Shown: positions 13,186-37,225 of the stretch, piece after piece
Numbering within the stretch: the stretch's first letter is position 1
Layout: the number at the start of each line of letters is the position of its first letter
NCBI GenBank assembly: GCA_023248155.1
Contig: JAHFFE010000001.1
Coordinates: 314,603-378,602, forward strand
Length of the DNA stretch: 64,000 nt
Reading direction: 5' to 3'
DNA from: Candidatus Omnitrophota bacterium
GTDB lineage: Bacteria; Omnitrophota; Gorgyraeia; 1-14-0-20-64-10
Made by a program: the position numbers and the translations under genes
Notes under the pieces: model-generated
Seen by the model: the letters and a program-made list of their open reading frames with translations, nothing else
What the model was told of the DNA's origin: nothing
Databases searched by the model: none

Positions 13186-13200
13186 CCGAAGGAGTTTTCG

Positions 13201-13512: not shown

Positions 13513-13530
13513 ATCGAAAAGAAAGCAGAT

Positions 13531-14799: not shown

Positions 14800-15395
14800 A
14801 CGAGCGCGGACAATTAATCCCATTCGTTATCGAGCAGACCGGCCGCGGTGAGCGGTCGTACGACATCTATTCGCGGCTTCTCAAGGACAGGATCATTTTC
14901 ATTGGCTCGCCGATCGATGACATTGTCGCCAATGTGGTGATCGCCCAGCTGCTCTTTTTGCAGATGGAAGACGCGAAAAAAGACATCAACATCTACATCC
15001 ATTCGCCGGGCGGATCGGTCACGGCCGGTCTGGCGATCTACGATACGATGCAGTTCGTAAAGCCCGACGTCGCCACCTTCTGCCTGGGTCAGGCCGCGTC
15101 GATGGGCGCCGTGTTATTGGCCGGCGGCACCGAGGGCAAGCGCTACAGCCTGCCCGAAGCGCGCATCATGATTCATCAGCCCTGGGGCGGCGCGCAGGGA
15201 ACGGCCTCGGACATTTCAATTCAGGCCAAGGAAATTTTGCGGCTTAAAGAACGGTTGAATCAAATATTGGCGTTGCATACCAAGCAGCCGCTGGACAGAA
15301 TTCACAAGGATACGGACCGCGACTTTTTCATGTCCGCCGACGAAGCGAAAGCCTACGGGCTGGTGGACGAGGTAATCAAAGGAAAACAGAAATGA
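14796..15395 (+). CDS. clpP: ATP-dependent Clp protease proteolytic subunit
   Basis: [17 protein letters not shown]...[19 protein letters not shown]...[14 protein letters not shown] catalytic Ser motif. Confidence 0.95.
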
Positions 15396-16504: not shown

Positions 16505-16505
16505 G

Positions 16506-18101
16506 ATGGCCAATCCAGTTAAAATATTAGTTTCCGACCCGTTGTCCGAAGAAGGCATTGAAATGCTCAAGTCGATCGACGGGGTCCAGGTCGACACGAA
16601 ATCCAAATTAAAACCGGAAGAACTTCTGGCCATCATCGGCGAGTACGAAGGTCTGGTGATCCGCTCCGGCACGCAGGTAACCAAAGAGGTTCTCGCGAAA
16701 GCCAAGAAACTCAAGGTGATCGGCCGCGCCGGCGCGGGCCTCGACAATGTGGATGTGGAGACCGCGTCCAAGATGGGCGTTGTCGTGATGAACGCTGCCG
16801 GCGGCAACACCGTTTCCACGGCCGAGCATACGATGTCGATGCTGCTGAGCATGACGCGTAAAATTCCGCAGGCCTGCGCGTCGCTGAAAGCCGGCAAGTG
16901 GGAGCGGACCTCATTCATGGGCGGCGAGCTGTACGGAAAATATCTTGGCATCGTCGGCATGGGCAAGGTCGGCACCGAAGTGGCCCGCCGCGCGCATGCA
17001 TTCGGCATGCGGCTCGTGGTGTTTGATCCGTACCTGTCGCTCGAGCGCGTGCAGGAACTGGAAGCCGAGCCGGTCAAGGAATTGAACGAACTATTCAAGA
17101 AATCCGATTACATCACCATTCATACGCCGCTCAACACCGAGACCAAAGCGTTGATCGGCGCTGAAGAACTGGCGATGATGAAAAAGGGCGTGCGCATCGT
17201 CAACTGCGCGCGCGGCGGAATCATCGACGAGAAAGCGTTAACGGCCGCGATCCAGTCCGGGCATGTGGCCGGCGCCGCGATCGATGTGTTCGAGCAGGAG
17301 CCGCCCGTTTATACCGATATTATCCAGCTGCCGCAGGTGGTGGTTACGCCGCATCTGGCCGCTTCCACCGAAGAAGCGCAGAAAAATGTGGCGCGCGAAA
17401 TCGCGCTGAGCGTGCGTGATTTCCTGCAGGGCAAAGGAATCCGCAACGCGGTGAATGTTCCGTCGGTCGACGCTGAAACGCTGAAACTGATTGATCCGTA
17501 CCTCAAACTAATCGAGCGGCTCGGCATGATGCAGGGCCAGTTGATCGACGGCGCGATTAAAGAAGTTCACCTGAAATTCGTCGGTGAACTGACGCGCTGG
17601 AGTTTGGCGCCGCTGACGGTCGCGTTCATGAAGGGATTGCTCTCGTCCGTCATGTCGGAATCGGTCAACTATGTCAACGCGTCCATGATCGCCAAAGACC
17701 GCGGCATCAAAGTGATCGAGACCAAGGCGACCGACGGTGAAGATTTTGCCAACTTAATCGCCACGACCGTGATTACCGACAAGAAAACTTCGCAGATTGA
17801 CGGCACGCTGTTTACCCGTTCCGATCCGCGCATCGTGCGCGTCGACGAATTTTATGTCGATGCGGTTCCGGCGGGCGCCATGTTGATCGTGCGCAATCAG
17901 GACAAGCCGGGCATGGTCGGCCGCGTCGGTACCATTCTGGGATCGCACAACATCAACATCGGCTGGATGTCTCTGGGACGGCGCACGCAGGGCGGCGACG
18001 CGTTGATCGTCTTGAACCTCGATCAGCCGTTGTCCGATGAACTGTTCGCCGAGATCAAAAAAGAACCGCTCGTCATCGATGTAAAGCGGGTTCAGCTGTA
18101 A
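16506..18101 (+). CDS. serA: D-3-phosphoglycerate dehydrogenase with C-terminal ACT domain
   Basis: KILVSDPLSEEG, NAD-binding GIVGMGKVG, catalytic RGGIIDE...H. The start is taken at MANPVKIL just after the upstream stop. Confidence 0.9.
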   Translation: MANPVKILVSDPLSEEGIEMLKSIDGVQVDTKSKLKPEELLAIIGEYEGLVIRSGTQVTKEVLAKAKKLKVIGRAGAGLDNVDVETASKMGVVVMNAAGGNTVSTAEHTMSMLLSMTRKIPQACASLKAGKWERTSFMGGELYGKYLGIVGMGKVGTEVARRAHAFGMRLVVFDPYLSLERVQELEAEPVKELNELFKKSDYITIHTPLNTETKALIGAEELAMMKKGVRIVNCARGGIIDEKALTAAIQSGHVAGAAIDVFEQEPPVYTDIIQLPQVVVTPHLAASTEEAQKNVAREIALSVRDFLQGKGIRNAVNVPSVDAETLKLIDPYLKLIERLGMMQGQLIDGAIKEVHLKFVGELTRWSLAPLTVAFMKGLLSSVMSESVNYVNASMIAKDRGIKVIETKATDGEDFANLIATTVITDKKTSQIDGTLFTRSDPRIVRVDEFYVDAVPAGAMLIVRNQDKPGMVGRVGTILGSHNINIGWMSLGRRTQGGDALIVLNLDQPLSDELFAEIKKEPLVIDVKRVQL

Positions 18102-21895: not shown

Positions 21896-22459
21896 ATGGA
21901 AGAAACCGCCCCCGCTCCAGACGAAGCAATCTTGCTGCCCTCGTATTGGCTTGATGGCGCGCTGCCGTCTGAAGACGATATTGAGGATGGAACCTGGATC
22001 TGGGAACCGGACTATTTTCCGGAAGGAATTATACGCGTTCACTCGCACCCGTCCGGCAAAGGCGTTCACTTTCACGGCTTCCGCAACAGCCCGATCCATA
22101 TGGTGGGGCATCCGATGATTACGCAGGAGGTCTGGCTCGATCCGGCTGATCCGCCGCGCGGCATCATGGTGAAATTTGTCTTAACTTCGGGTGATGAGAT
22201 TGGCGTTTATTGGGAAGGGGAAGAAGAGGTTTTCTTTCCGCTGATCGAAAAAGAAGGCCCGATGGAAATCTGGTATTACGGAATGCTGCCGGAGCTGGGC
22301 AAATGGACGCCGCTGACGATTCTGGCCGAAGACCTGGCGTTGGAAGACCAGGATGTTGTCGGCTTGAAATTCGTCACCTATGACGGCCGCGCATTGTGGG
22401 GCCGCACCAGTGTTTCCGAAGCGCCCGCCCCAGAAGAAAACAATACACCTGTCTCGTAA
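21896..22459 (+). CDS. Hypothetical protein, probably secreted. The frame is open upstream to 21578 and encodes a signal-peptide-like segment but has no ATG/GTG/TTG there.
   Basis: Upstream in-frame translation KTFYLSVFFCVLALASTAGAEQ resembles a Sec signal peptide. It is followed by a diverged tandem repeat AVSETITHTP(T/M)EET x2 and a Trp/Tyr-rich C-terminal domain. Confidence 0.5.
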   Translation: MEETAPAPDEAILLPSYWLDGALPSEDDIEDGTWIWEPDYFPEGIIRVHSHPSGKGVHFHGFRNSPIHMVGHPMITQEVWLDPADPPRGIMVKFVLTSGDEIGVYWEGEEEVFFPLIEKEGPMEIWYYGMLPELGKWTPLTILAEDLALEDQDVVGLKFVTYDGRALWGRTSVSEAPAPEENNTPVS

Positions 22460-22637: not shown

Positions 22638-22721
22638 GTCATCCTGAGATAACAACGGCATGTCATCCTGAGAGTGTACTTGCTCAGGATCTAAAGATGC
22701 TGAACAGAAAATTTTCAGCAT
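22638..22721 (+). repeat. Double-hairpin element copy 2. A half-site GTCATCCTGAGAT (22638-22650) precedes hairpin 1 ATCCTGAG-N10-CTCAGGAT (22665-22690) and hairpin 2 ATGCTGAA-N9-TTCAGCAT (22697-22721).
   Basis: Hairpin 1 is 27/30 identical to 4367-4396. The 3' arm of hairpin 2 contains the ATG (22720) of giant gene 1. Confidence 0.55.
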
Positions 22722-25700
22722 GACAAAAAATAAATCTATGAGAATAAAAAAATACAATCAAGTTTCCATCGCAACCTTTCTGCTAATCAGCCTGGTCGGG
22801 ACATCCTCCGTTCCGGCCGTCTCTCTTCCTATATATACGTTGCGCCCGCTTGCTTCCGCGCAAAATAAATCCGGTGCCGAAGAACTAACCAATGCCCTTA
22901 AGCGTCAAAATGATTCTAATGCCAATCAACCGCTTACCAACCAGGCCGTTTTAGACAAAGCGCAAGCTGGCCCATTGCTCAGCGAAACCAAAGAGTTGGC
23001 TGACGCCGCTGCGCGTGCCGCACTTGGCATTACTGCTGGCCAGGAGGAGAAGATTGAGCAATTTACTCGCGACAGAATTTTGTTGCGCTTGAACACCGGA
23101 AGGGAAATACCAACAGTTCCATACAAAACCGGGTTTTTGGCCGGTTTAGCCCAGGCCATTGCCGACCCAGGGCTTTCCGGTACCGCTGAGAGTTATTTAG
23201 TTCAGGAACTTCCACCAGGCCTTCGCGATGTGGTTCAGACAACGGCTGATCTAATTGGCAGAAATCGATTTACAAAGATGGACATGAAAGTGGCTCAAAC
23301 CGACACAGGGTCTCCGTTGACTGGTATTGCCGGCGAGACGATCATGGAAATTCTTTACAATGCGTTTTCACGGGGTTTTGGGGTAGGCCTCCCTCTGAGT
23401 GATAAAGGATATACGGCAATAGTCGTCAGCGGTACTCCCGGTTCTGATCTTTCGGTAGTATCCATTCCTGAGATTGGTCCCGATTTTCAAGACAGCCAGT
23501 TTGCCCGTTCATTAGCCAATCATGTTGTTGATCAACAGCCTACCGTTTTGGGAGTTGACCGGAGAGCAAAATACACTCTTTATGAAATAGGAACCGGCAA
23601 CACGGACTATGCGCTTCCAAAATATCTAGCGGGTGAGCAAGGTAGGAGAGGCTCATACCTTTTGCTTCAAATCGATCTGCCCATAAGTTTCGCCGGCGCG
23701 GAAGAGCGTGGGTGGTTTTCTCGCAATAAAGGTTTTTTTGGCATGGTTGCTTTGTCAGTGGCAGTCCTTGGATTTGCTGCTTACCAAATTGCCGGAGACC
23801 AGATTGCGGAACAATATTATCTTTATCGCCATCCTCCTACAGTAAAACAAGCGGCTGTTATGCCGTCCGGGTTGCATGTTCAGCTGCCTCCTGAAATGGC
23901 GGGTAAATATGCGGTGGCTTATCTGGAAACCGACCGTTTTTATCCGCAGGTCATAACACAGGTATCTGCTGACGGGACCGCTGCGTTTCATGTGGAAGTC
24001 CGGCCCCCTAACCGGCCCGGATGGATTGCCGCTCGCGGACGAGTGGTTGCGGTGGTTAATTCCAAGCAAGCGGCGAATGTAGCTTTCAGGGAAATAAAAG
24101 ACCCGTCTGCTTTGAATCGATTAAATCCGGCCGCTGTTTTAACAATTGATTCCGACGGGAAGGTGACTTCTGATAAGGATCCGTTGGGTAATCAAAACGC
24201 CGGGCAGGAAGAATCTGTTGCAACGGCCATTGATCAGCTTGTTTCGAACAGTTTTGGAGCAACCAATGTAATAACTACAGAAATGCTTTTCAATAATTCA
24301 AACGGAATGGTGACTTTCCAGAATTCAAGTTATTACGGGGATCAGACCTATGAATTAACGCTCCGTCCGTGGGTGAGTCTTTTAAGTGATCATCCAGAAG
24401 AGAACGTTGATTTCAGAGTTCGTGTCAGTCTGCAGAGAAAAGATTTCGCAGTTTTATCAGCTGCGGAACGAAAAGCCATGGCCAGCTACGAATTCAGAGT
24501 CAAAGGGTTTCCTTCTGCGGAGTTTCAATCCGGGTGGACAGCGCTTTCGCCTAATCCGCAACCCAAGAACTACTATGATCCTGGCGCGGGTCCTAACACC
24601 CCTCCAGGGTTTGTCATTCCTGCGGGTGCTGATATGGAAACGTGGATACCCATTCCGATAGTCTCGGACGCTTTCAGAGGAGAAAAGCTTGCCGAGTTGC
24701 AGCGACGCGACCCGGCTCAGAGAAGCATAACCATCCAGGTTAGGAAAGCCGGACAGGAAGAGACGGTTGTCGTTGGGCGGATACTTACTTTGCAGGCCGC
24801 GATGGAAAAACTGCGTACATTGTTAGCCGGTTCCAACCATAAACAAATCGTTTTTAATCCAGAGCAAAACGAAAGCTTAATAGAACGTACTGAAACCGCA
24901 TCAGTAAAAGATGTTTCGGATTTAACCGGGCCTGTTCGCCTCATTGGTCAATACTCGCCCAACTTTGATAATGGTCAGGGGGAAGGGCTGGTCGATATCC
25001 GTACCCGAAACGGCATCATTTATGTGAATCCTTTTCCATACAAAGCGGAAGAACTTTCTCTGAAAGTTACGCAGCTGTTTCGAAGAGGCGATATTTTGGT
25101 GGACCAAACTACGGGTGTCCGTCATTTTGAAGTTGCTGACAATCAAGGAAACGCTGTTGATGCTGTTCCTCTGGTTTCAATTATCAACGGATACACAGCT
25201 GATTCTAAGGTGACGCGTGTTCCTGCCGCGGATCTTCGGCTTCGCTACCGCGTGATTCGTGCCGTTGCCGCCGGGGCGGAAGAAAATGTTGAGGAATTGG
25301 CCGCTCGGTTAGGGGATGAGCCAATTAAGGTCGTGGAAACACTTCCTTCCTCTGCTCTTTTGACTGCCGATGCGAAAGCAGATGTGGTCCGTTACTTGCG
25401 GGGAGAGATTGAAGAGGCTGAGCTTCTTGGCATCTTGGACCGCTTAGGAATAGTGGAGATTCAGTCAGGCGGCAATTTCATGAACCAGGCGGAGCTCATT
25501 CGCGCCGCGGCGAAAGAGCGGGCCTTGGTGGAGAGAGCGATTGCGGAAGACCGTTTGGGAGAGTTTATTCCTATTGCCGATGGGAAATCCGCGGCTGTGG
25601 TGGAAGTGGATGTCGTCTCGAGTCTGCCAAAGGTTTATCTGCAGAATGGTTTGTCTTCGCCGGTTGCCGCGCCCGATGACATAGCGATCATTCCTTTAAG

Positions 25701-26025
25701 CGGCGATATTGCGGAAGTTTCTGATCAGTGGTTGAATGGGGCAGGTTCTGAGTCCGATCTGGTTATTTTGAATAACCAGCTGGATGGCGTGGCCGCTATG
25801 CCAGGTTCCTGGCTTCCGGCGGTAGCTCCAAGGCCAGCCGCGGTCCGCATGAGCCCGGTAACCTCGACGGAGCTTTTTTCAGGCGACGCCATTCAGGTGG
25901 GCCGCAACTTGCGCGCTATGGCGGCGCTCTCTCTGGCAGTGCACGGAGTACCGGATATGGATATAAACGGAATTACCTTTGTTGATCTGGCCGGAAAAAC
26001 CTATGCGGTTATTACCTCTGCCTAA
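22720..26025 (+). CDS. Giant secreted protein, AG-x-EE motif family member 1 (1101 aa)
   Basis: Signal peptide. Six AG(A/Q)EE-type motifs. A GDILVD...ADLRLR module shared with member 2. A conserved C-terminal module ending DLAGKTYAVITSA. Confidence 0.8.
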   Translation: MTKNKSMRIKKYNQVSIATFLLISLVGTSSVPAVSLPIYTLRPLASAQNKSGAEELTNALKRQNDSNANQPLTNQAVLDKAQAGPLLSETKELADAAARAALGITAGQEEKIEQFTRDRILLRLNTGREIPTVPYKTGFLAGLAQAIADPGLSGTAESYLVQELPPGLRDVVQTTADLIGRNRFTKMDMKVAQTDTGSPLTGIAGETIMEILYNAFSRGFGVGLPLSDKGYTAIVVSGTPGSDLSVVSIPEIGPDFQDSQFARSLANHVVDQQPTVLGVDRRAKYTLYEIGTGNTDYALPKYLAGEQGRRGSYLLLQIDLPISFAGAEERGWFSRNKGFFGMVALSVAVLGFAAYQIAGDQIAEQYYLYRHPPTVKQAAVMPSGLHVQLPPEMAGKYAVAYLETDRFYPQVITQVSADGTAAFHVEVRPPNRPGWIAARGRVVAVVNSKQAANVAFREIKDPSALNRLNPAAVLTIDSDGKVTSDKDPLGNQNAGQEESVATAIDQLVSNSFGATNVITTEMLFNNSNGMVTFQNSSYYGDQTYELTLRPWVSLLSDHPEENVDFRVRVSLQRKDFAVLSAAERKAMASYEFRVKGFPSAEFQSGWTALSPNPQPKNYYDPGAGPNTPPGFVIPAGADMETWIPIPIVSDAFRGEKLAELQRRDPAQRSITIQVRKAGQEETVVVGRILTLQAAMEKLRTLLAGSNHKQIVFNPEQNESLIERTETASVKDVSDLTGPVRLIGQYSPNFDNGQGEGLVDIRTRNGIIYVNPFPYKAEELSLKVTQLFRRGDILVDQTTGVRHFEVADNQGNAVDAVPLVSIINGYTADSKVTRVPAADLRLRYRVIRAVAAGAEENVEELAARLGDEPIKVVETLPSSALLTADAKADVVRYLRGEIEEAELLGILDRLGIVEIQSGGNFMNQAELIRAAAKERALVERAIAEDRLGEFIPIADGKSAAVVEVDVVSSLPKVYLQNGLSSPVAAPDDIAIIPLSGDIAEVSDQWLNGAGSESDLVILNNQLDGVAAMPGSWLPAVAPRPAAVRMSPVTSTELFSGDAIQVGRNLRAMAALSLAVHGVPDMDINGITFVDLAGKTYAVITSA

Positions 26026-26065
26026 AATCAATCGTTAGTAGTAGAAAACTTCGCCGTTATTTTTA

Positions 26066-26096
26066 TTGACAAAAATAACAACCCCAGCGCTATAAT
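26066..26096 (+). promoter_or_regulatory. Sigma-70 promoter for giant gene 2
   Basis: TTGACA-19 nt-TATAAT. Followed about 25 nt later by CAGCGGTCTTTTTTT, which resembles a block downstream of the member 3 promoter. Confidence 0.55.
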
Positions 26097-26215
26097 GGCA
26101 AATAACCTTGAATTTCGCAGCGGTCTTTTTTTGTCCGTCATTTTTTACAGATTTAGATAAGATCTGAGACAGCTTTTATGAACCCATATAAAAACTCGGC
26201 CAGATAAAGGAAAAA

Positions 26216-29200
26216 GTGATGCGGACAAATTTAAACCAGTTCCTGGCCGCCCTGCTTCTCGTTGGTCTCTCTTTCGCGAATATTTCTCCCGTCCCTCAGC
26301 TGTTCATGGTGAGTTTATCGAACCATACTCTGCGTGCCGTTGGTTTAGAGGAAGGCACCCAAAAGAATTCTTTATCTGACGCTTTAAAAAATAATGCCTC
26401 CGGATTAGAGGAAGCGGTTGTTTTGGACGCGTCGGTTCCTTATCAATATCCCTGGCGGACTGCCGAATTCGACGAGCTTTGGCCAAATGCCGATGATCGT
26501 GATCCCAAGCTGGAACGCTTTCAAAGATTGTTCAACCAGGATTTGGACGGCCATCCGGAAGGGGAGATTCAGCTCACATCGCCCAACGGAAACCCCGATG
26601 AGTTGGCCCGCTGGATTGCTGAAAACAATATGACTCCGCAGCGGGTTGCCGAAAGCATTGAATGGATCCATAAGATGCACCCCTACGATAAGGAACGGTT
26701 TATCTCTCTTCAGCAGTTGCCCAGCATTCAGGCGTTTCTTGCCGCTCATCCGGAAGCCCGTTTCAATTTAATCGGCGTCCGCGAAGATGAGAGCAAGGTC
26801 GGTTCCTTCAAAATCGGCCAGTATATGGATGAATATCTGCAGAAGATCCTCAAAGCCGGCCATCGAGGAGATGTAAATTTCCCGGGCGCCGTGATGTACT
26901 CCTCGGGAAACGCCATTCAGGGAGATGTCGAGACATTGGCCTGGCTCAAAGAGCAGGGGTTGGTTCCGCAAGATTTCAAGATCACAATGGTGGCAATGGC
27001 TTACCTGAAACCCAAAAAGCGGAAAATGATCGAGGATTTTAAAAAGCGGGGATTGGTTGACCGAATTGTTACCCCCGAAGAAATTGCCGCCGAGTATCTT
27101 GCCGATTCAGAGGGGGGCAGCGTACCGGTTCAGCATCAGGACTTGGCGGTTGATCCCGTGGCGTTGGATGACATCAATCAGGTTTTGAAACTTTTGGATT
27201 GGTGGTCGGAGAAACAGGGCCGGGCCCATATTTACGCTTCCAACAGCTTAAGCGCCGTCGTGGGCGGGGCCAGAATCTACTACGATATTAATCGGGCATT
27301 TACGCAGGATCGTGAATACCTGCAAGCGTTGTTGGGGGATGCCGCCGAAACTTTGCCGGCTCAGCCCGATGGTATTGTCATGCCTGCCGCGGGCGGCGGA
27401 CCGTTCGGGGGAATACCGTTTTGGGCGCGCCAGCTTGGGCATGCCACCAAAACCATCGGACCGATCCCCACCATCCGGACCGGCAGCATCGCGGAAGGTC
27501 TGGGCATTCAGATGATTCAGGAACTCGCGCGCAATCTGGCCCGTTTATTGGGAGTAAATCAGATGCAGCTTACCGAGGTATCTGAGCGGGCTATTCTAAA
27601 AGCGTTTGTGGAACTGCATGACGCCGGAATTGAAGTGGAGCCCAGCTCTGCCATCGCCTACGCGCAGGTGCTGTACCTGATGGAAAACAAACCTGAATTT
27701 TTCTCTCAATTTTTGGCTGAGAACGGCCGGCCGATGACGCTGGTGGCCATATTAACCGGGCGCAATTTTGAACCATCGGATGCCGCCTGGGCTTGGGCGA
27801 AGGTTCAAGAGCTTCGCCTGAAGGAGCCCCATGCCCTCAGAGCCGATCCAACCCAAAGGCAGGCGGCCGTTCCTCCGGCGAATGGGCTGCAGCAGGTTGT
27901 CGTTTTGAGTTCAGGCACCGAGCAGGCAATGGGCAGAGCGCTGCGCCAGGCGGTAATCGATTGGCGCGCGTCCCAGCCGGCAAATCTGAAACCAACCGTA
28001 ACGGCTGTCTACAATCCTCCCAAAGATCTGGATTGGCTTAAAAAGATAAAACCGGATGTCATTCTTGTGGCGGCTACTGCCGAAGAAGCCCAGCAGGATG
28101 GTTTACTAAGGAATGCCATCACAGTTCTTGGCGATGCCGGCGTTCTCATTCGTTATGTTCCTTTCCCCAGCAAGGTAGCAAGATCTTTGAATCCGCTGGC
28201 AAAATCTCTGCCAGGGAAGCTTCTAAAAATCGGCGAGCTGTTTCAGGGAGGGGATATTTTGGTGGATTCGACAACCTCCAAGCCCCGTTTTCGGGTAGTT
28301 GCCGACCAAGCAAACACCATCAGCGCTGTTTCTCTCCAACCAATTGATGAGCAGGGCAATTCCGCGGGGCCGGAAACCGCTGTCCCCGTCGCGGATCTAC
28401 GCCTGCGTTTTCAAGTGGTTCGCGCCGGCTTAGAGGAGCAATTGCTCACCGTTACGGTTCCTCCAAGCCAGCCGGTTTGGCTCACGGCGGCAGATGGAAT
28501 CCAATTGCTGGAACGGTTGCTGCAAGAAGGGGAGTCCCGCTCGATTTACTCTGTTAAGCACGGGGCTGATTTTCTTGTGCCTCGTTACAGAGCGGTAGTT
28601 TCAAAAGAGGGAGGTGTCATTAAAGTCCGAACAGTCGGTAAATTTTCGATGTCACTTGAGTTCGTCATGACGCGCGTCGAGGGTTATTTTATCGTGAAGC
28701 CGGATGGAAACATCTTCGTTATTGATGCCGAAGATGGAAACCAGAGAGCGAATATTTATTTGCGCAAGAATTTTTCGACTATTTCCGTTGATTCTCTCGC
28801 GCCTGCCGCTGTCGAGGGCTGGGTTCAGCGACCTTCCGCGGAAGAAGCGGCGGCCTATATCCGGGAGCTTGTTCCACAAGGCGTTTCTGCTGTTCAAATG
28901 GGAGACGCTGAACATTCTCCGGAATCTGACCGTTTGGTTGATGATCTCACTCAGTTTCAGGGGGGAGCTGGCAGCGGCCGGATTTTCTATTTGAGAAGGT
29001 CCAACCAAAATGTAGAGGTGTTGGCGATCACTGCGATGGATTTTGACGCCAGATCCATTGGGGAGTTCCATCAATTGCCGATGGGTGAGTTGTTGAAGAA
29101 GATCGCTCAGCTGGGAGCGAACTGGTTCGTCCAGGTCGGTTTTTCGAATTCGGCAGCGCGGGTATATGCGACAGACACCTCTGGTTTGCAGAGACTTTTG

Positions 29201-31267
29201 CGTGGATATCCCAATACGACGGGTTTCTACGCCCTGTCCCTTCGCGCAAATCAGACTGCTTTCGTGAGCAACAGCTCGAATCCCAATTCTTCCGGATTGG
29301 AGGAAGATTTTCGAGATGCTTTCTCGGATGGGATGGCCGCTCAGCATTATTTGGACCAATTGGCGGGTTTTGCCGATATTGTTTTATTGAATCAAACCCA
29401 AGAGGCTTTGGGTAGAGTCGACGCCCATTCAAGGGATTATCTGGATCCGAAGGGAATTTATCCTTCCACCAGAGAAATTATTCCCAAGTACGCTCAAGCC
29501 AATCCTGTCGAATTAGACAGTGCTCATCGCGAACGGTTGAAAGAATTTCTTTTTTCGGTTTGGGAGAACGAGCGCCGTATGCGGAACGAACCGCAAGGTT
29601 CTGCTCGAACAGGCAGGCCAGTGGTTGATGTGGAGTCAGCCATGCTTCCTGAACTCATAGAGCAGGGACGTGCTGCTCAGCGGCTGGCGTTGTCTGGCGG
29701 GCTGGAAGAGCGGGTGAATCTTTTGGTTATTCGGGATTCTAATGACGCGGCAACCAAACAAGCGCTGCTAGGTATCGTTCCTGGCTGGGCTAAAACAAAA
29801 GCTTCGCAGGAAATCGATGTGGTTTCTTACGGCACCCTGGATAAGGGGCTTGCCGCCTCGCCTAAGAAAGGCCGATGGAGCGGGATCCTGATGTTGCGGC
29901 ATGTTGCGACTGAAGCCGATGTCGATGAGATTGAGCGCCAGATTACCGGCCTTAAGCCCGTTTCGGATTCTGCGGCGATACCGGTTGCGCTGATCGTCTA
30001 CGCGTCGGACCAAAAAGTATACGAAAAACGGTTGCTGGGTTCGCTGCAACTCCTCAAAGGAAGCCAGGGTATCGTCACATTTTTTGTTCATCGTTTATGG
30101 CAAGACAAACCTGCTTCTCAGCCCGCCGTCGCGGATTCACCGGAACCCACAGCGAAACCGGCAGTGCCGCCGGCAGGAGTCTTCACGGGAGTTCTGGATC
30201 AATTGCTGGACTCCGCGGCTAAGTACGCTGTGGCTGTCGGTCTGGAAGAGCGGGGAGCGCTGCTTCCCGATGTTTTCTTTCGGCGTCCAGGGTTCCAGTT
30301 CCTTATGGAAATGGGAAGAGCAAAAATCCTGCCGGCGGATTTCGATGTCCGGGATAAATCTCTTCAGGTTCGAATCGGCCGGATCGTAGGCCGCTGGGGG
30401 TTCAGCCGTTGGCTGGAAGAACTCCCGCTGGCAAAGGTTCTTGAGAATAGCCCCAATGGGCACAATGACCTGGCCGCGGTGGAAGCGTTTATTGCAAGGG
30501 CACAAAATATTCCGCCGGATTATTTTGGGATAGCGGCAGGAACCACCCAGTGGTCGCCCAAGAAGACGCCTTCTTGGCCGGCGGTTCAGCCATTAGTGAT
30601 CGAGGCGGTAGCGGGTGCTCGTCAAAATAAAAATTTCGAATTACAGTACACCCCTGCTGCGGTAAGCGAATCGGATGTGACTGATCAAAGCGACGGTAAA
30701 ACCTACCATCATGTTGAAATAGTTTCGCCTCCGAAAATTCAGCTTCTTCCTGCCGCCGGGCTGGAGGAATGGACCGTTTCCGATCTGTTCTTGCGCGAAG
30801 TGGTTACCACGCACAATTTTTACACGCGATTTGCGCAAGAAGACGGTTCCCAGCTGATTGTGGTGCCGATGGGACAGAATAAAGTTAAGCCGGCGAATCT
30901 TTATTTGCAGGAGGGGCTTGAGAATCCCATTTCGCGCCTGGTTCCAAACCCTGTTCGTCTGGGAAGAGAAAAGGAGGACGTTCGGGGGCTCTTCCGCCAA
31001 AACCCCGCGGGTCCCAACGATGTCATTGTTCTCAACTCCGATATAGTGAGGGGTGATCCGTTGTCCTGGTTTTCAGCGGGCGGCGCGAATACTCAATATA
31101 AGGTGCGTATTTCACCGGCGTTAGCCATGAAATTCAACAATGATCTGGATACCCGATTCATGGAAGTGGTCGCGTTGGCCGCGCGGGTGGGTAATGGAAT
31201 GTTATTGCTGGACTACACGTATCAGGCGGTGGATGACCAGGTGTACTTGATCCTGCGCTCCGCGTAA
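26216..31267 (+). CDS. Giant secreted protein, AG-x-EE motif family member 2 (1683 aa). The N-terminal domain resembles a fold-type-II PLP enzyme.
   Basis: Seven GLEE motifs. A GSFKIG lysine motif, an AAGGGPFGG glycine loop and GIEVEPSSAIAYA recall threonine synthase/TrpB-family enzymes. The C-terminus ends YLILRSA. Confidence 0.8.
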   Translation: MMRTNLNQFLAALLLVGLSFANISPVPQLFMVSLSNHTLRAVGLEEGTQKNSLSDALKNNASGLEEAVVLDASVPYQYPWRTAEFDELWPNADDRDPKLERFQRLFNQDLDGHPEGEIQLTSPNGNPDELARWIAENNMTPQRVAESIEWIHKMHPYDKERFISLQQLPSIQAFLAAHPEARFNLIGVREDESKVGSFKIGQYMDEYLQKILKAGHRGDVNFPGAVMYSSGNAIQGDVETLAWLKEQGLVPQDFKITMVAMAYLKPKKRKMIEDFKKRGLVDRIVTPEEIAAEYLADSEGGSVPVQHQDLAVDPVALDDINQVLKLLDWWSEKQGRAHIYASNSLSAVVGGARIYYDINRAFTQDREYLQALLGDAAETLPAQPDGIVMPAAGGGPFGGIPFWARQLGHATKTIGPIPTIRTGSIAEGLGIQMIQELARNLARLLGVNQMQLTEVSERAILKAFVELHDAGIEVEPSSAIAYAQVLYLMENKPEFFSQFLAENGRPMTLVAILTGRNFEPSDAAWAWAKVQELRLKEPHALRADPTQRQAAVPPANGLQQVVVLSSGTEQAMGRALRQAVIDWRASQPANLKPTVTAVYNPPKDLDWLKKIKPDVILVAATAEEAQQDGLLRNAITVLGDAGVLIRYVPFPSKVARSLNPLAKSLPGKLLKIGELFQGGDILVDSTTSKPRFRVVADQANTISAVSLQPIDEQGNSAGPETAVPVADLRLRFQVVRAGLEEQLLTVTVPPSQPVWLTAADGIQLLERLLQEGESRSIYSVKHGADFLVPRYRAVVSKEGGVIKVRTVGKFSMSLEFVMTRVEGYFIVKPDGNIFVIDAEDGNQRANIYLRKNFSTISVDSLAPAAVEGWVQRPSAEEAAAYIRELVPQGVSAVQMGDAEHSPESDRLVDDLTQFQGGAGSGRIFYLRRSNQNVEVLAITAMDFDARSIGEFHQLPMGELLKKIAQLGANWFVQVGFSNSAARVYATDTSGLQRLLRGYPNTTGFYALSLRANQTAFVSNSSNPNSSGLEEDFRDAFSDGMAAQHYLDQLAGFADIVLLNQTQEALGRVDAHSRDYLDPKGIYPSTREIIPKYAQANPVELDSAHRERLKEFLFSVWENERRMRNEPQGSARTGRPVVDVESAMLPELIEQGRAAQRLALSGGLEERVNLLVIRDSNDAATKQALLGIVPGWAKTKASQEIDVVSYGTLDKGLAASPKKGRWSGILMLRHVATEADVDEIERQITGLKPVSDSAAIPVALIVYASDQKVYEKRLLGSLQLLKGSQGIVTFFVHRLWQDKPASQPAVADSPEPTAKPAVPPAGVFTGVLDQLLDSAAKYAVAVGLEERGALLPDVFFRRPGFQFLMEMGRAKILPADFDVRDKSLQVRIGRIVGRWGFSRWLEELPLAKVLENSPNGHNDLAAVEAFIARAQNIPPDYFGIAAGTTQWSPKKTPSWPAVQPLVIEAVAGARQNKNFELQYTPAAVSESDVTDQSDGKTYHHVEIVSPPKIQLLPAAGLEEWTVSDLFLREVVTTHNFYTRFAQEDGSQLIVVPMGQNKVKPANLYLQEGLENPISRLVPNPVRLGREKEDVRGLFRQNPAGPNDVIVLNSDIVRGDPLSWFSAGGANTQYKVRISPALAMKFNNDLDTRFMEVVALAARVGNGMLLLDYTYQAVDDQVYLILRSA

Positions 31268-31453: not shown

Positions 31454-34400
31454 ATGCGATTTGATTTCCTGCGCTCAATCTCGGTGGTAGTCCTGTCTGT
31501 TTTTTCTCTGTCGTCTGTTTCTCCTGCATTTGCTCTGCGTGCCGCCGGCTTAGAGGAAAACGCGGAAAAGGGTACGGTCACCAGGAGGCTTCTTGAGGGC
31601 AACCGCGGAAATTTTTCGGGCGGTCTGCAGAAAAACTCCACCTCCGGTCTGGAAGAGATCCGGATCCTGCTGGTGGCGGTTTCTGACGAAGCTCTCGCTA
31701 AAAAAATGGGAGAGATGGCACAGGCCTGGCGTTCGGAGTTGGACGTAAGAATTGTTCACACTGCAGACGAGGCTCAGGTTTATCTGAAAGCGCAGCAAAA
31801 TCCAAGGCCGGATGCGGTCATCTGGGAATTATCCACAATGGGAACCGAGACGCTCATAGATCCAAGCCAGCTTTCTTTCAATGTACCCGTGGCTCTGGTA
31901 GGCGAGGGGGCGATGGGCGTGGTTGGAGAATGGATCGCATTGTTCAACAACCGTCCCGTTCCTGCCCCTTTTCAGGAGACTCTTCAACAAAAAGCCAAGA
32001 AGGATGGGTTTTCGAGAACTGCTCGCTTGTTATTTGGTGATGATCTAGTAAACAGGCGGCCCCTGCGGCTCCTGAGGGGAACTGAAAATTATGAGTTATC
32101 TGCTTTCACGCATAATCTGGACATACTGAATAGGGATTTCAGGAGCCGTTCCGCTGGGCTGGAGGAGGCGTGGGATCGCGACACCGCGGACAGTTGGACG
32201 ATTTTAAGTGGTACAGTTTCCACCCAACTTATCCAGCAGTTGCTTCAACAAACTCCCGCGCCGGCAATCACCGATCTGGGCAATTTTTACTGGACCAAGG
32301 GAACGCTTTCACAATTGACTCCCGGCATGGTGAATAACATTTTGAATGTTGCACCGTCGCGTCACCTATTGGCAATCTCGAATGGACAGGTTGCCTTGAT
32401 TCGTCAGGGAGAATTGGAATCGGCCGACCAGGACGGTGCGAAAGATGCAACCAATTGGTATGGGAAATTGGCGACACGCGCCGAGACAGTGCTGACTCCT
32501 CAGCATTTACAATCCGCCGGCTTGGAGGAAACGCCCGCGCAAGTCATCGCCAAGCAAAAAGCGATGGCAGTCATTGCAGTTCCCAGTGTTCAAGTTGCTG
32601 CCGGTATCGGTGCAGTGGTTGCGTACAAGGGAATAATTCCCGAAATTACATTTCGGGGGAATGAAGCCGATGTTTTGCAGGCGATCAATGCACTTTTCGG
32701 TCTGTCGTCGAGCAAGCGAATGCCGGTAGCGGCCGGATCTGTATTGACGGCCGATCAGGTGGAGAAAGCTGTACGGGCGGGTGCTAAGATTATCGTCAGC
32801 CCCGGCTTGATTGATGAAGTTATTCTCAAGGCCCAGGAATTGGGAGTTTTGGTAATCCCAGGCGTGGCATCGATGTCTGAGGCAAAAACAGCGGTCGAGG
32901 TTTACGGCCTTTCACTGTTGAAATTTTTCCCATTCTCTTTTGTCGATCAGGCTGATTTTATCAAATCAATCAAAGCGCCATTGCCGCCAAATCTTCAGGC
33001 CGTGGTGGACGCTAAGGTAACATGGGGAGATTCCGGAGAAGTCGCCACATTTACAAAAATTCTTGAATTTGTCCTGAGTAATCCGACAGCATCAAAGCAA
33101 TTCCAGCTTCCCAAGAAAAAAGGATTGGAAGCGCTTCATCAATTGGGCGTGAATCCGGCAGTTGCCAATGCGCAGTTTATTCCAACCGGTGGTATTACGC
33201 CGGAGATGATCCCGCAGTTGATAGGGAAGGAAAAGATCGTCGCGGTAGGTTTATCCATCGGCGGAGATAATCCGGCGGTTCTTGCGAAAGCCGATGCTAT
33301 TGCGAAAGCGGTTGCGCAGATTGCTGGTGCCGAGGAGGGAGTGGTTGCCGTTGTTGCATCGGAAGATAATTTTCAGGCAGTCGCTGGTTATGTGCGTAAG
33401 TATGCGATTGGGCAGGGCAGAAAAGCCCCTCAAATGGTTCACCAGCATTTTGATGATGCTCGGCAGAATGCCAGTCGCGGTTTTGTGACTGCCATCGTGG
33501 CGATTTTTCCAAGCGCGGATGCTGATCAAATTGCGTGGATCGAAAGAACCAAAGAACTTGCTCCTAACGTTCCAATCGCCGTGATTTATTCCGGCAATGG
33601 AAACGAGGTTCGCCGCGTCTCAACTAAAGCACTGAGCAGTAGAGAGTTGAGCCAAGATGCGGTTGGTGAAATGGTTTTCTCCCTGCTTCCCACCGCTGGT
33701 GCGGAAGAATCAACCGTGCTTCTTCCAACCCCGCAAAACTCGTTTCCTGCAAGTCGAGGAGCTGTCTCTCCGGACGGGGATTCACTATTAGCGTTGAAAG
33801 AGACACCGGAGGTTCGCTGGGCAACGATGGTGGGCCGTACGGAAGGGTTTTCTTCGGGGCGATCTTCCGACGGTTTGGTTCACGCGCAGGGATTGGTGGA
33901 TCGTCTGGAGATCAAAGCCGGATTTACAACTGGCATTGAAAATGAACTGAATATTGTCGAATCGTATCGAGCTGGGCAATATACGCTGGCGATTCTCGGA
34001 GCACCCGTTGCTACAAGCGCTAGGCCGATTATCCAAGGTTTTAAGTATGAGGTTACAGGTGCTCCTGGGGTTAATCGCGTACTGACACTTTCCGTTGATC
34101 AAAACGCTGTTTCCCCTAAGGTAATAAATAATCTTGTCGCTCAAAATTTACCATCAGGCAGCCCAAAACCGTTGACGGTTGTTATCGAAGCCGCCGCTGG
34201 TCTCGAAGAGACGGTTTACACGGGCATTGACCAGGTTGTAGCGGCGATTACTCAACCTGAAGGCGAAGACAGCATCCGGGCTCTTGTCTACTCTCTTCCG
34301 GATGGAACAGAACAACGCGCGGTTCTTGCCCCAGGTGAATGGACTCCTGCGCAGGCGGTTCCCGGTGCTTTTCAAGCAATGGAACTCCGTCCTGTTTCCG

Positions 34401-37225
34401 GCAGGGTAACAATTACTATTAGTGGAAGCGATGTTGTTCTCCGCAAAGCGCCTGAGGAGCCAGTAATTGTTGCTCCGGTTAAGACTGCTGTGAAACTTCC
34501 GTTGACGGCGCGGCTGGCCAATATGTTTGGCGTATTCCGTTTCTCGGTGGACGCCACGGACAACATCAGCAATGAATTTGTTGATTATGTCGGTTCTGTG
34601 GGTGGTGATAAAGGGACGCTGAACCCATCCTCTGTCGGGAAATCCGCGGAGACCGGGCAGATGAATTCGTTGGTTCGTGAATTTGTTTCTTCTACGGTAA
34701 GAGGCGCGAATCTGCTCTGGCAATTGGTCAAGCGGCATGTCAGCGCGGTTTTCCTTCCCCGCGTGGAGACCAGTGTTGAATTGGATCCAACCGTTCCCTC
34801 GGTTTACGCGTTGACATTGGATGGTAAAAATCCTGTGGTTGTCAAAAAGAGCGAGGAAATCGTTGTTGACGAGATCGCTGTTGTTGTTGACAAGATCGTT
34901 GTTAAGGAAGAGTTCCAGGCCATTGTCGGCAAGAAGACCTTGAAGCCGGGCGAAAAACTGACGCCCGCGCAGGCGCGTCAGGTCCATAGCTTAATGGTTC
35001 GGCAATGGGTGGCGCAGGCGCTCGAAATCCATCGGCTGGGTGACAAAGCGACGGTAAAAATCGGCCACACGAAGTCGTTGACGCCCATCATGGGCGATTG
35101 GGGCGTGCGCGTTGGGCTGGATGTGCTGCATATTTTGTCGGTGCTGGGCATTCACCGCAACTTCACGCTGGGTTTTACCGAAGAAGATGCCAATCTGGCA
35201 TTGCAGGCCGACCGCGTCGTGCAGGCGGAGCTGGACGCGGTGAAAACATTGGATCTTCAGACAGTTTCTGCGGACCAGGTCATTTCCGCGCTGGACGCGC
35301 TCTATACGCCGGAGATTCGAGGGGATTTCAAGAATGACCCTTTGCCGCTGGGTCTCTTAGACAAAACTTCTCCGGTCATTCTTCCGGGCCAGCGCGCGGC
35401 CAAGGGCTACCGTCCGGCCGGGCGTTCTTATTTCAGTTTGTTCGCAAGCCGGGTCGATGCCAAGGTGAACAGCGCTGAATGGAAGGGAGAGTTTACCGAC
35501 GATCAGCAGAAATATTTTGGCATCGTGAACTTGCTGTATGTCATGGTGACGCATTACAACGATCAGGTTCCCTGGAATAAAGCCCATGGTCAGGTCGTGA
35601 TTCCGGCCAGTTTGGAGCCGAAAGTGGCCGGTCAGCCGGGTGATTTCTACTTTACTCCGCTGGTGGGTTGGGGGTATCAGGTTGTGCCGACCGCCTCTAA
35701 AAAAGTGATCGACGCGTTTAATGCTCGGACAGTGACCGATGAAATTACCGGTCAAGAGCGAGAGCTCAGTGAGGCGGAGCTATATGAAATCGCAATGCGG
35801 ACCCAGAGAATGAAGCAGGACTACGCGGATAAATTGGCCGCGCAAGGGCCGTTGTCTCCGGTCATTGATCAGGCCGCGGCGATCGATGTAATTGCCAAGC
35901 GTTTCGTGCAGGAAGGGTTTTACGCTGATTTTGACACGGCCCGCGCTGTGGTTGAGAGCATCGTTACGTACAGGCAGAATAATCCGCAGGGCTACGACAA
36001 AATGATGAACCAGTTGTATCCCGAGGGGGATGATAAATTTACCGGCCCGCATCTGCTCGGTGTTCAGAGCGTGAACCAGAAAATTGAGGTGGTGGCTGCC
36101 AACCGGCAGAGCGCGCAATTGGTTGGTACGCTTCGGGAAATCAACTATGTTCCCACGAGAATCCTCAATGAAACAGGCAGCCAAACGGTGCTTGATAACT
36201 TAACGGATGTCGCTAATTTGTTGGAAAGCGACGATTCCGCTGTTGTAGCGTTGAGTCTGGCTGAAAATTTGTTGATTGTTCGTACCGGCAAAGTGGAAAG
36301 CATCGCTCTTGCGCAGGCCGATCTGTCGGCTTTGTTGTCTCTTGCGGGACCATTGGCTCCGCTGAAAGTTGCTGCACAACAAAGAGCGGAAGCAGAAGCC
36401 AAAACCGCTCTGCAGAACGCGTTTGGAACTTTACCGTTGGATACCGCCGGCACGCGTGTTTATTCCGGCCCGGCCGCTCTGCGCCAGTTGTCGGAACTGT
36501 TTTCCGGAGATGTGGCGGTGATTGGGGCCAGATACGAAGAAGGGAACCCGGCGTCGGTTATTACTACCCCGCGGAACACGGCCCGTCTTTCTGTGAGCGC
36601 TAATCCGAACAACTATCTGGTGATTCAAGCTCCTTCCGGCCAGTTAGCGCTTGTGCGCAAAGAGGAATTGGAATCCAAGGATAGGAGAGCTACAGCTGAG
36701 GCGGCTGCTAGAGCTAAAACCGCTGTTCCGGGTACCGGTGGCGAGGTTATCGCCCCGGTTGCGCCGACATTGCTGGAGCGGATCGTTGCCAAAGTGGGTG
36801 TTCCGATCACTGCAACGGTTGTCAAACTCGATGAAAAGCAACTGGATCTTCCGTCCAGGCTATGGCTGCACAATGGTTTGTTGCAGCCGAGCTTCATTGC
36901 TAGGGAACAGATTACCGATCTCCCGGCTGACAAAGCGGGTGTTGTGGCTGTCTGGTCTGGCAAGCAGGCCCAGATTCAATCCACCGACCTGGTTCTACTC
37001 AACGCCAACACGGTTCCTTCGGCGGAAGTAGATCAGTGGCTGGTAGGATTGCCCGCGGATCGCAAACCGGTTGTTTTACGGCTTTCAAACAATGACATTA
37101 ATATCGCCAGGAATCAGAATATTTTGGCTGCGTTAATCGAGATTGCCCGGCAACAGGGCGGGTATCTGGATGTCATCGGTATGACCTACGATCCGGCTAC
37201 GCAGGTGTTGTCGGTCCAGGCTTAA
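31454..37225 (+). CDS. Giant secreted protein, AG-x-EE motif family member 3 (1923 aa). It has receiver-like, KDPG-aldolase-like and transaldolase-like domains.
   Basis: Signal peptide plus an ALRAAGLEE box. Seven motifs, all in the N-terminal ~900 aa. Eda-like motifs (PVAAGSVLTADQVEKAVRAGAKIIVSPG...IPGVASMSEAK...LLKFFPFS...FIPTGGITPEM) and transaldolase-like motifs (VKIGHTKSL...GIHRNFTLGFT...SYFSLFASRVD). Confidence 0.8.
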   Translation: MRFDFLRSISVVVLSVFSLSSVSPAFALRAAGLEENAEKGTVTRRLLEGNRGNFSGGLQKNSTSGLEEIRILLVAVSDEALAKKMGEMAQAWRSELDVRIVHTADEAQVYLKAQQNPRPDAVIWELSTMGTETLIDPSQLSFNVPVALVGEGAMGVVGEWIALFNNRPVPAPFQETLQQKAKKDGFSRTARLLFGDDLVNRRPLRLLRGTENYELSAFTHNLDILNRDFRSRSAGLEEAWDRDTADSWTILSGTVSTQLIQQLLQQTPAPAITDLGNFYWTKGTLSQLTPGMVNNILNVAPSRHLLAISNGQVALIRQGELESADQDGAKDATNWYGKLATRAETVLTPQHLQSAGLEETPAQVIAKQKAMAVIAVPSVQVAAGIGAVVAYKGIIPEITFRGNEADVLQAINALFGLSSSKRMPVAAGSVLTADQVEKAVRAGAKIIVSPGLIDEVILKAQELGVLVIPGVASMSEAKTAVEVYGLSLLKFFPFSFVDQADFIKSIKAPLPPNLQAVVDAKVTWGDSGEVATFTKILEFVLSNPTASKQFQLPKKKGLEALHQLGVNPAVANAQFIPTGGITPEMIPQLIGKEKIVAVGLSIGGDNPAVLAKADAIAKAVAQIAGAEEGVVAVVASEDNFQAVAGYVRKYAIGQGRKAPQMVHQHFDDARQNASRGFVTAIVAIFPSADADQIAWIERTKELAPNVPIAVIYSGNGNEVRRVSTKALSSRELSQDAVGEMVFSLLPTAGAEESTVLLPTPQNSFPASRGAVSPDGDSLLALKETPEVRWATMVGRTEGFSSGRSSDGLVHAQGLVDRLEIKAGFTTGIENELNIVESYRAGQYTLAILGAPVATSARPIIQGFKYEVTGAPGVNRVLTLSVDQNAVSPKVINNLVAQNLPSGSPKPLTVVIEAAAGLEETVYTGIDQVVAAITQPEGEDSIRALVYSLPDGTEQRAVLAPGEWTPAQAVPGAFQAMELRPVSGRVTITISGSDVVLRKAPEEPVIVAPVKTAVKLPLTARLANMFGVFRFSVDATDNISNEFVDYVGSVGGDKGTLNPSSVGKSAETGQMNSLVREFVSSTVRGANLLWQLVKRHVSAVFLPRVETSVELDPTVPSVYALTLDGKNPVVVKKSEEIVVDEIAVVVDKIVVKEEFQAIVGKKTLKPGEKLTPAQARQVHSLMVRQWVAQALEIHRLGDKATVKIGHTKSLTPIMGDWGVRVGLDVLHILSVLGIHRNFTLGFTEEDANLALQADRVVQAELDAVKTLDLQTVSADQVISALDALYTPEIRGDFKNDPLPLGLLDKTSPVILPGQRAAKGYRPAGRSYFSLFASRVDAKVNSAEWKGEFTDDQQKYFGIVNLLYVMVTHYNDQVPWNKAHGQVVIPASLEPKVAGQPGDFYFTPLVGWGYQVVPTASKKVIDAFNARTVTDEITGQERELSEAELYEIAMRTQRMKQDYADKLAAQGPLSPVIDQAAAIDVIAKRFVQEGFYADFDTARAVVESIVTYRQNNPQGYDKMMNQLYPEGDDKFTGPHLLGVQSVNQKIEVVAANRQSAQLVGTLREINYVPTRILNETGSQTVLDNLTDVANLLESDDSAVVALSLAENLLIVRTGKVESIALAQADLSALLSLAGPLAPLKVAAQQRAEAEAKTALQNAFGTLPLDTAGTRVYSGPAALRQLSELFSGDVAVIGARYEEGNPASVITTPRNTARLSVSANPNNYLVIQAPSGQLALVRKEELESKDRRATAEAAARAKTAVPGTGGEVIAPVAPTLLERIVAKVGVPITATVVKLDEKQLDLPSRLWLHNGLLQPSFIAREQITDLPADKAGVVAVWSGKQAQIQSTDLVLLNANTVPSAEVDQWLVGLPADRKPVVLRLSNNDINIARNQNILAALIEIARQQGGYLDVIGMTYDPATQVLSVQA

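Follow-up and report, generated by a model that had tools for sequence, protein, structure and literature searches.

Whether the long, leader-bearing multi-enzyme proteins of Omnitrophota act whole or are cut into parts is a current puzzle, and a 64,000-nucleotide stretch of a Candidatus Omnitrophota genome (contig JAHFFE010000001.1, positions 314,603 to 378,602; hereafter the window) holds a small and tractable version of it. Six tandem genes, M1 to M6, lie head-to-tail on the + strand in housekeeping chromosomal surroundings and encode proteins of 0.8–1.9 kaa (thousand amino acids, aa), with module boundaries marked by a five-residue motif, [AS]G[LAQVF]EE. A module of about 70 residues shared by M1 and M2 raises a specific question: are such motif-bounded modules the units by which this protein family evolves? 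Alignment with relatives outside the window suggests that they are, in that modules are shown to be gained, lost and permuted between orthologues and paralogues, with the breakpoints falling at motif-bearing linkers. The six genes are as follows.

22720–26025 (+): M1, 1101 aa; hydrophobic leader, 6 motifs and the common C-terminal domain, ending ...TSA
26216–31267 (+): M2, 1683 aa; leader, PALP-like enzyme module, the mobile module, further modules and C-terminal domain, ending ...RSA
31454–37225 (+): M3, 1923 aa; KDPG aldolase and transaldolase, without the mobile module
37242–42056 (+): M4, 1604 aa, without the mobile module
42061–45177 (+): M5, 1038 aa, without the mobile module
45224–47677 (+): M6, 817 aa; weak ROK match, without the mobile module

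One module recurs in M1, M2 and three relatives

The two window copies of the module, with the motifs that flank them, occupy the following positions (HMM, hidden Markov model built from five copies).

25042–25053 (+): decayed motif K-A-E-E (YKA-EE) just N-terminal to the M1 copy, aligning with SGLEE/AGLEE of the relatives P0012 to P0014
25054–25269 (+): module copy in M1, aa 779–850, LSLKVTQLFRRGDILVD...ADLRLRYRVIRAVA; HMM match E 5e-39, and BLASTP match to M2
25270–25284 (+): AGAEE motif closing the M1 copy
28220–28423 (+): module copy in M2, aa 669–736, LLKIGELFQGGDILVD...ADLRLRFQVVR; HMM match E 7e-37
28424–28438 (+): AGLEE motif closing the M2 copy, where homology to the M2 orthologue P0008 restarts exactly

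The first-pass annotation of this DNA, made from the sequence alone, had quoted one peptide from each copy, and both are in frame as quoted (M1 aa 786–856, ~25075–25287; M2 aa 675–742, ~28238–28441). Its further points, that the copies sit at different relative positions and that both end at a motif, are borne out: the module lies 71–78% along the 1101 aa of M1 and 40–44% along the 1683 aa of M2, with AGAEE and AGLEE respectively following immediately. The identity it gave, about 50%, is fair for the core and slightly generous overall, where 41.6–46% was measured. In BLASTP, M1 769–857 and M2 658–743 align across 89 aa and are 41.6% identical (E 1.7e-12); in a MAFFT alignment identity is 46% across 80 columns, and GDILVD, ADLRLR and the motif do not vary.

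No other internal region is common to two or more of the six proteins at E < 1e-3 (BLASTP). The five-copy HMM gave one match in M1, one in M2 and zero in M3–M6, and revealed no hidden copies in the other loci. At the nucleotide level the two copies are 54% identical, with 41% identity at third codon positions and the same codon at 17 of 35 identical residues. Since half of the identical residues thus use different codons and third positions have diverged so far, the duplication is judged to be ancient. The modules upstream of the two copies are unrelated to one another, being uncharacterised in M1 and a PALP-like enzyme followed by a 'VVVLSSG' module in M2.

A two-sequence profile run against 1.84e9 representative proteins retrieved three further full-length carriers only (E 4e-15 to 4.5e-9), all of them motif-bearing members of the same family:

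P0012: module at residues 214–285, E 4e-15
P0013: module at residues 327–399, E 8e-10
P0014: module at residues 1982–2051, E 4.5e-9

The remaining profile matches were multi-stretch ones to unrelated repeat proteins, and a metagenome scan with module stretch A1 gave no confirmed locus.

Modules are exchanged between relatives with breakpoints at the motif

The M1/M2 pair had been taken as direct evidence that motif-bounded modules are the evolutionary unit of the family. For the pair alone this does not hold. A dot-plot comparison of the six window proteins, proposed at the time as the check, is purely collinear (leader, one internal module, C-terminal domain). Under the refuting condition stated with that check, the window taken by itself would thus fail to demonstrate shuffling. 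The boundaries of the window copies coincide with the motif on one side only: the motif is intact on the C side of both copies, while on the N side it is decayed in M1 and absent in M2, where nothing motif-like is found (SLPGK). The conclusion about modular units is nevertheless correct, because in the relatives the module is absent from orthologues, its neighbours are diverse, module order is permuted and homology ends cluster at motifs.

Orthologues of both M1 and M2 lack the module. The M1 orthologue P0002 is 47–84% identical elsewhere, and in it the shared upstream module runs straight into a motif. Where M2 has the module, its orthologue P0008 (65–84% identical) has two different modules, both motif-bounded, and M2 737–894 corresponds to P0008 1007–1158, homology restarting exactly at the AGLEE of M2. 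In both orthologues homology to M1 or M2 breaks at motifs.

No two of the five copies of the module have the same upstream neighbour, and their downstream neighbours are of three different kinds. In P0012 it forms a complete 72-aa segment between SGLEE and AGEQEE, followed by a partner 63% identical to M4 875–1021; in M4 that segment is preceded by an unrelated module with no trace of the mobile one, and no remnant of the latter was found upstream of the 'TYRNYD' module of M4. In P0013 and P0014 the module starts right after AGLEE or SGLEE, and its C side is fused to the next module without a motif. These two proteins have an M6-type C-terminal domain and are encoded last in their clusters, in a partly similar neighbourhood with serA and OmpA genes nearby. 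We read them as positional counterparts of M6, so that the cluster member carrying the module would vary from lineage to lineage.

Module order is inverted in three independent comparisons (residue numbers):

M2 versus L2c: M2 1027–1165 matches L2c 618–756; M2 1159–1518 matches L2c 253–621
P0013 versus P0014: 321–561 matches 1974–2213; 528–987 matches 234–697
P0009 versus P0012: 1018–1141 matches 439–567; 1130–1320 matches 33–222

In its Logan contig (locus L002, nt 7981–8050) the M2 orthologue is divided between two overlapping open reading frames (ORFs), P0008 and L2c, that differ in frame. A frameshift, a mistake in assembly or a true division of the gene could account for this.

Segments cut at the motif match from end to end, e.g. 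M2:1027–1161 against L2c:618–752 over 135/135 residues. It was found that 69 of 148 internal ends of high-scoring segment pairs (HSPs) lie ≤ 5 aa from a motif, compared with 7.4 ± 2.6 expected (~9-fold), and 91 of the 148 lie ≤ 10 aa from one, compared with 14 expected. The term 'motif-bounded' is thus best taken, on these alignments, as a strong tendency and not a rule.

An account without shuffling would make M1 and M2 ordinary paralogues that inherited a fixed module order vertically, the position of the shared module differing through differential insertion or loss of flanking sequence. The collinearity of all significant similarity among the six window proteins and the age of the two copies are what one would expect of such a history. 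It is nonetheless improbable given that the orthologues of M1 and M2 are both without the module, that other lineages have the module in P0013 and P0014, read as the positional counterparts of M6, and that real order inversions are seen in three independent comparisons.

Junctions can decay and leave modules fused

The YKA-EE that precedes the M1 copy is a decayed junction, because it aligns with the N-side motifs of the relatives and lies at the position of VGLEE in the orthologue P0002 (a reading of the sequences by eye). At the same point in M2 the motif has been lost completely. A second case is found in M2 upstream of the shared module.

27881–27895 (+): NGLQQ, motif-like, at the end of the PALP-like module of M2; a probable decayed junction

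The end of the PALP-like module (...HALRADP) is followed by AAGQEE in P0010, NGLQQ in M2, KGLQQ in P0008 and VGLIR in P0009. Beyond it, M2 and P0008 share the 'VVVLSSG' continuation, and P0009 and P0010 each differ. Evidently, as far as these alignments go, junction motifs can be lost, leaving modules fused, and this is the state of the shared module in M1 and M2. With its N-side junction motif decayed in both proteins, the module is there probably a fused accessory or binding appendage of the modules upstream.

The motif is conserved as a peptide in predicted linkers

The six proteins contain 32 matches to [AS]G[LAQVF]EE, where shuffled sequences give 0.16 expected. There are 3–9 junctions per protein, and the median spacing between motifs, ~170 aa, is about that of a domain. 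When the whole 64 kb was searched in six frames, 32 of 35 matches fell in the six reading frames of the cluster. Each of the four Gly codons occurs (10/9/10/4), GAA and GAG are about equally frequent at both Glu positions, and the x position is filled by unrelated codons. Because synonymous codons at the motif vary freely, selection acts at the peptide level and not on a DNA element.

The converse, that the motif is the footprint of a DNA element such as a repeat, a recombination site or an internal ribosome-binding site, with peptide conservation as a by-product, was considered since the motif-coding stretches do form short direct DNA repeats (20–36 nt at 62–95% identity) and GAGGAG or GAGGAA resembles a Shine-Dalgarno core. 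We regard it as very unlikely. In addition to the free Gly and Glu codon choice, the unrelated x codons and the in-frame position of the 32/35 six-frame matches, no tandem or long repeat is involved, and the module copies themselves retain only 54% nucleotide identity, falling to 41% at third positions. A Shine-Dalgarno or internal-start role of the GAGGAG-like codons was ruled out, as the codons vary and inspection of the flanks shows no consistent start codon after the motif.

Structure prediction with AlphaFold2 (AF2) at two sites places the motif in low-confidence, presumably disordered linkers. In the model of the shared module the predicted local distance difference test score (pLDDT) is < 50 over most of residues 82–91, motif included; in the model of the C-terminal domain it is < 50 over residues 1–6, where the motif stands at the start.

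The consensus varies by lineage, as in P0009, where the motif reads AGVEE. Two distant loci provide a further case, each with a 28%-identical copy of the PALP-like module inside a giant ORF that runs off its locus: an ORF of > 4619 aa in L012 (ORMF010384133.1, nt 3–13859) and one of > 5764 aa in L013 (Ga0209515_10000997, nt 3–17294). AGxEE is absent from both giant ORFs. They contain instead [AG]QS[LM]G, 8 and 9 times respectively (expected < 0.1, a rough estimate), with polar low-complexity sequence on the flanks of the copies. Giant proteins may therefore be punctuated by motifs that differ between lineages.

The shared module is a rare, mostly beta domain

The isolated module belongs to no Pfam or NCBIfam family. 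Its AF2 model, made for M1 aa 770–860 from five sequences, has six strands and one short helix (pLDDT 78.7; predicted template modelling score, pTM, 0.70). The best partial superpositions from a Foldseek search of the PDB are to the beta part of CHAP domains and to Tudor/SH3-like barrels, with template modelling (TM) scores of 0.35–0.51 and sequence identities of 7–23%. Sequence and model together indicate that the module is a real, rare, lineage-restricted and autonomous domain of ~70 residues. A binding or accessory role, as opposed to catalysis, seems most plausible for it; as no PDB fold matched significantly, that role is a guess.

Its shortness (~70 aa), along with the lack of a Pfam family or significant fold match, could be taken to mean that the likeness of M1 and M2 is a product of chance or composition and that the module is no real domain. 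That notion is already refuted by the pairwise E of 1.7e-12, by profile matches confined to the motif-bearing family in so large a database, by 13 invariant columns across the five copies and by the compact AF2 model.

A possible role as cleavage site and recombination joint

We propose that the module is one item in the repertoire of leader-bearing 'beads-on-a-string' proteins in bacteria related to Omnitrophota and Planctomycetia. In this family domain-sized modules, some of them complete metabolic-enzyme domains, are joined by predicted disordered linkers carrying [AS]-G-[LQAV]-E-E. Some endopeptidase would cut the precursor at the motif, probably near A|G, into separate modules. Rearrangements could stay productive either through microhomology of the in-phase motif-coding DNA, 20-nt stretches of which reach 80–95% identity, or through selection for breakpoints in linkers. 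Taken as a whole, including its conjectural steps, this picture of a lineage-restricted family with modules swapped at motif linkers is in our view probable.

The cleavage step is the more tentative part. A processing site in a polyprotein is the reading of the motif that we favour, at something short of even odds, on four grounds. First, a plain spacer needs no near-invariant small-G-x-E-E. Second, the consensus shifts between lineages (AGVEE; [AG]QS[LM]G), a pattern typical of sites that coevolve with a protease. Third, a transmembrane-like (TM-like) helix or a twin-arginine-like (Tat-like) signal (AGLEENSSRISRRRFIWTAAGALAGAPLGAVG) starts 14–16 aa after some motifs, and internal segments of this kind are odd unless a new N-terminus arises there. 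They were located as follows.

M1 aa 325–357 (23692–23790): internal TM-like segment, 14 aa past a motif
P0002 aa 710–745: post-motif TM-/Tat-like segment
P0005 aa 218–250: post-motif TM-/Tat-like segment

Fourth, Ala is the C-terminal residue in 13 of 17 complete family proteins (typically ...SA, ...AA or ...GA), which between them have at least three non-homologous types of C-terminal domain, and Ala also precedes the motif Gly in 84 of 128 motifs. The C-terminal Ala codons in the window are these.

26020–26022 (+): M1
31262–31264 (+): M2
37220–37222 (+): M3
42051–42053 (+): M4
47672–47674 (+): M6

Several results weigh against the proposal as a whole. No order change is seen within the window, where, the shared module apart, all significant matches pair one leader with another or one C-terminal domain with another. 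BLAST carries an alignment on through the conserved pentapeptide, so that the crowding of HSP ends near motifs is exaggerated by a few residues. The module has no significant fold match, with nothing below E 0.03 in the Foldseek search of the PDB and a best E of 0.035. The motif has decayed (YKA-EE, GLQQ, GLIR) without loss of the protein and is thus dispensable at some junctions. Finally, no peptidase domain was found in M1–M6 (Pfam) and no protease gene in or beside the cluster, the only proteases of the window being housekeeping ClpP and an M50 RseP-like protein located elsewhere in it.

A quite possible alternative is that the motif is left uncut and is a conserved flexible acidic linker, or a short peptide that docks a partner or scaffold, within intact multi-domain chains. 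Shuffling would then be real, with breakpoints tolerated only in linkers. The low model confidence at the motif is consistent with this, as are the lack of a protease nearby and the tolerance of decayed motifs. Moreover, long Omnitrophota multi-enzyme proteins are described in the literature as single polypeptides whose cleavage is only speculated. What such a linker leaves unexplained is the near-invariance of G-x-E-E after a small residue, at 32 occurrences compared with 0.16 expected, which a spacer does not need. The alternative [AG]QSLG motifs and the Ala C-termini also better fit a recognition site than a spacer.

Returning to cleavage, the most extended form of the proposal is that [AS]-G-x-E-E and [AG]-Q-S-L-G are lineage-specific maturation sites and, at the same time, in-frame recombination joints of multi-enzyme precursors in Omnitrophota and the Planctomycetes–Verrucomicrobia–Chlamydiae (PVC) group. 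The part as joints would follow from every site being in the same reading phase. We regard this combined role as quite possible.

The gene cluster and its surroundings

M1 was recovered separately in NCBI, ENA and Logan assemblies; as these records were assembled independently, it is no assembly artefact. The cluster is flanked on its 5' side by tig, clpP, a serC-like gene, serA, purA and an H+-pyrophosphatase (H+-PPase) gene, and on its 3' side by ROK, OmpA, uppS, cdsA and dxr genes. Its G+C content, ~0.49–0.55, is slightly below that of the flanks (0.55–0.59). Rfam and tRNA scans over the window gave no matches. The nearest labelled relatives of the PALP-like module come from a Candidatus Omnitrophota metagenome-assembled genome (MAG; 73% identity) and an 'uncultured Planctomycetia' MAG (45%).

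All six members run from a leader through [AT]LR to a first motif. A hydropathy scan, used in place of a dedicated signal-peptide predictor, identified a hydrophobic N-terminal leader in M1, M2, M3, M5 and M6; that of M4 is under the cut-off, yet can be aligned with the leaders of the other members. In members and relatives alike the N-terminal layout is stereotyped: leader, [AT]LR, motif 1, a peptide of ~30 aa with L..AL, motif 2. Examples in the window are given below.

31454–31660 (+): N-terminal architecture of M3
37242–37460 (+): N-terminal architecture of M4
42061–42250 (+): N-terminal architecture of M5

The leaders of M3 and M4 are also kept at the DNA level, with 73% identity over 73 nt. 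A leader profile searched against a database of 5.8e9 proteins matched one short fragment only. At the other end, M1–M5 have a C-terminal domain of ~170 aa in common, which belongs to no Pfam or NCBIfam family and whose profile gave no meaningful match among PDB sequences.

Enzyme domains identified with Pfam and NCBIfam are a partial PALP in M2, KDPG aldolase and transaldolase in M3 and a weak ROK in M6; the relative locus L002 has malate-synthase and TAL domains. Across the six proteins and this relative, divergent metabolic Pfam domains of several kinds are therefore tiled along mostly unannotated chains. In M3 the KDPG-aldolase domain fills one motif-to-motif segment almost exactly (aa 356–624; 32516–33322). 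The last segment of M3 (aa 916–1923; 34196–37222) is 1008 aa long and contains transaldolase and a weak Secretin_N with no internal motif; it may hold decayed junctions.

Two further genes of the window touch on the cluster.

21896–22459 (+): orf187, an unannotated gene of 187 aa directly 5' of M1
61–3105 (+): a glycogen/starch-synthase-like protein of 1014 aa (GT5 and GT1) with a single AGAEE at aa 864

A homologue of orf187 is kept just 5' of the first family gene in other loci, with 93% identity in L002 and 49% in L010 (tblastn), and orf187 may be functionally tied to the cluster. It has no Pfam match and no PDB sequence match, and is His-rich in the stretch HSHPSGKGVHFHGF. The glycogen-synthase-like protein has an extension of 150 aa after its AGAEE, ending ...LQSA; this extension was considered as a copy of the family C-terminal domain and rejected, homology between the two being undetectable.

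Comparison with known systems

Giant proteins with glycolytic-enzyme-like domains ('Archaeovorins') have been described by a study that speculates on their cleavage and states that the cleavage points are unknown (West-Roberts et al. 2023, bioRxiv 10.1101/2023.11.21.568195). A later catalogue sets up a class named 'multi-enzyme metabolic cluster', characterised by starch synthase, GT1, PGM and ROK domains (bioRxiv 10.64898/2026.06.07.730766). The size criterion is a gene > 90 kb in the 2023 study and ≥ 10,000 aa in the 2026 catalogue. The window proteins resemble these Omnitrophota giant multi-enzyme proteins in coming, to judge by the labels of relatives, from the same or a neighbouring lineage, their best-labelled relative being a Candidatus Omnitrophota MAG. 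They also have a signal-like leader followed by unannotated sequence and divergent sugar- or central-metabolism enzyme domains (KDPG aldolase, transaldolase, ROK and PALP), a starch-synthase GT5 protein is encoded nearby, and the PALP-like module of M2 has a distant counterpart inside ORFs of > 4600 and > 5700 aa. The differences are in format: the window has six genes in tandem, every one of which encodes a leader and a C-terminal domain of its own, and proteins of 817–1923 aa, below the size criterion. Unlike the giant proteins, M1–M6 have no C39, S8 or SecA-DEAD domain (Pfam, E ≤ 0.1). Because they fail the size criterion and lack the C39, S8 and SecA domains, we do not file them as members; by sequence likeness, they appear to be a small-format relative sharing at least one module with the giant proteins. 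A term search of both preprints found no recurrent junction pentapeptide and no module permutation at defined boundaries, and a literature search on the motif peptides and on Omnitrophota polyproteins returned nothing relevant.

Processing at lineage-specific sites is familiar from other systems. Viral polyproteins are cut at lineage-specific 3C or NS3 sites, and the RgpA/Kgp gingipain polyproteins of Porphyromonas gingivalis are matured by proteolysis. In common with such processed polyproteins, the window has a short conserved site recurring at domain junctions in exposed linkers, a consensus that varies between lineages and, as predicted here, domain-sized products. It differs from them in that its cleavage is a prediction, in that no cognate protease was identified in the locus, and in having modules that are metabolic-enzyme-like or uncharacterised and not replication, capsid or adhesin modules.

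Junction motifs are also known from polymorphic toxins, as VENN in CdiA and PxxxxDPxGL in Rhs/YD proteins, the Rhs motif being a self-cleavage site as well. There too, homologues swap variable modules at a boundary labelled by a short conserved peptide. In CdiA and Rhs, however, one junction precedes the C-terminal toxin, and the immunity gene lies next to it, whereas the window proteins have 3–9 junctions with exchange anywhere along the chain, and their C-terminal domain is the conserved part and not the variable one. No small immunity-like ORF lies between the M1–M6 genes (gaps of 4–190 nt), and no toxin or immunity signature was found. As for the module itself, its AF2 model resembles SH3/Tudor-like small beta-barrels and the beta part of CHAP only in part.

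Modular or polyprotein-like architecture with domain shuffling is known, while the junction motif and the module family are previously undescribed. The shared module shows that the motif-marked boundaries are also those at which evolution breaks and rejoins these proteins, and it is the clearest marker of their evolutionary, and possibly maturation, units. This gives a rule for where to divide such proteins before their structures are predicted and their parts annotated, as well as a concrete peptide as a candidate protease or docking site, and provides evidence for combinatorial module exchange in bacterial protein families at a conserved in-frame joint. If the motifs do prove to be both maturation sites and recombination joints, the family would be a bacterial, intron-free analogue of exon shuffling. 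It would then supply the cleavage-point information that the 2023 giant-protein study calls lacking, and would define how such proteins are built and evolve.

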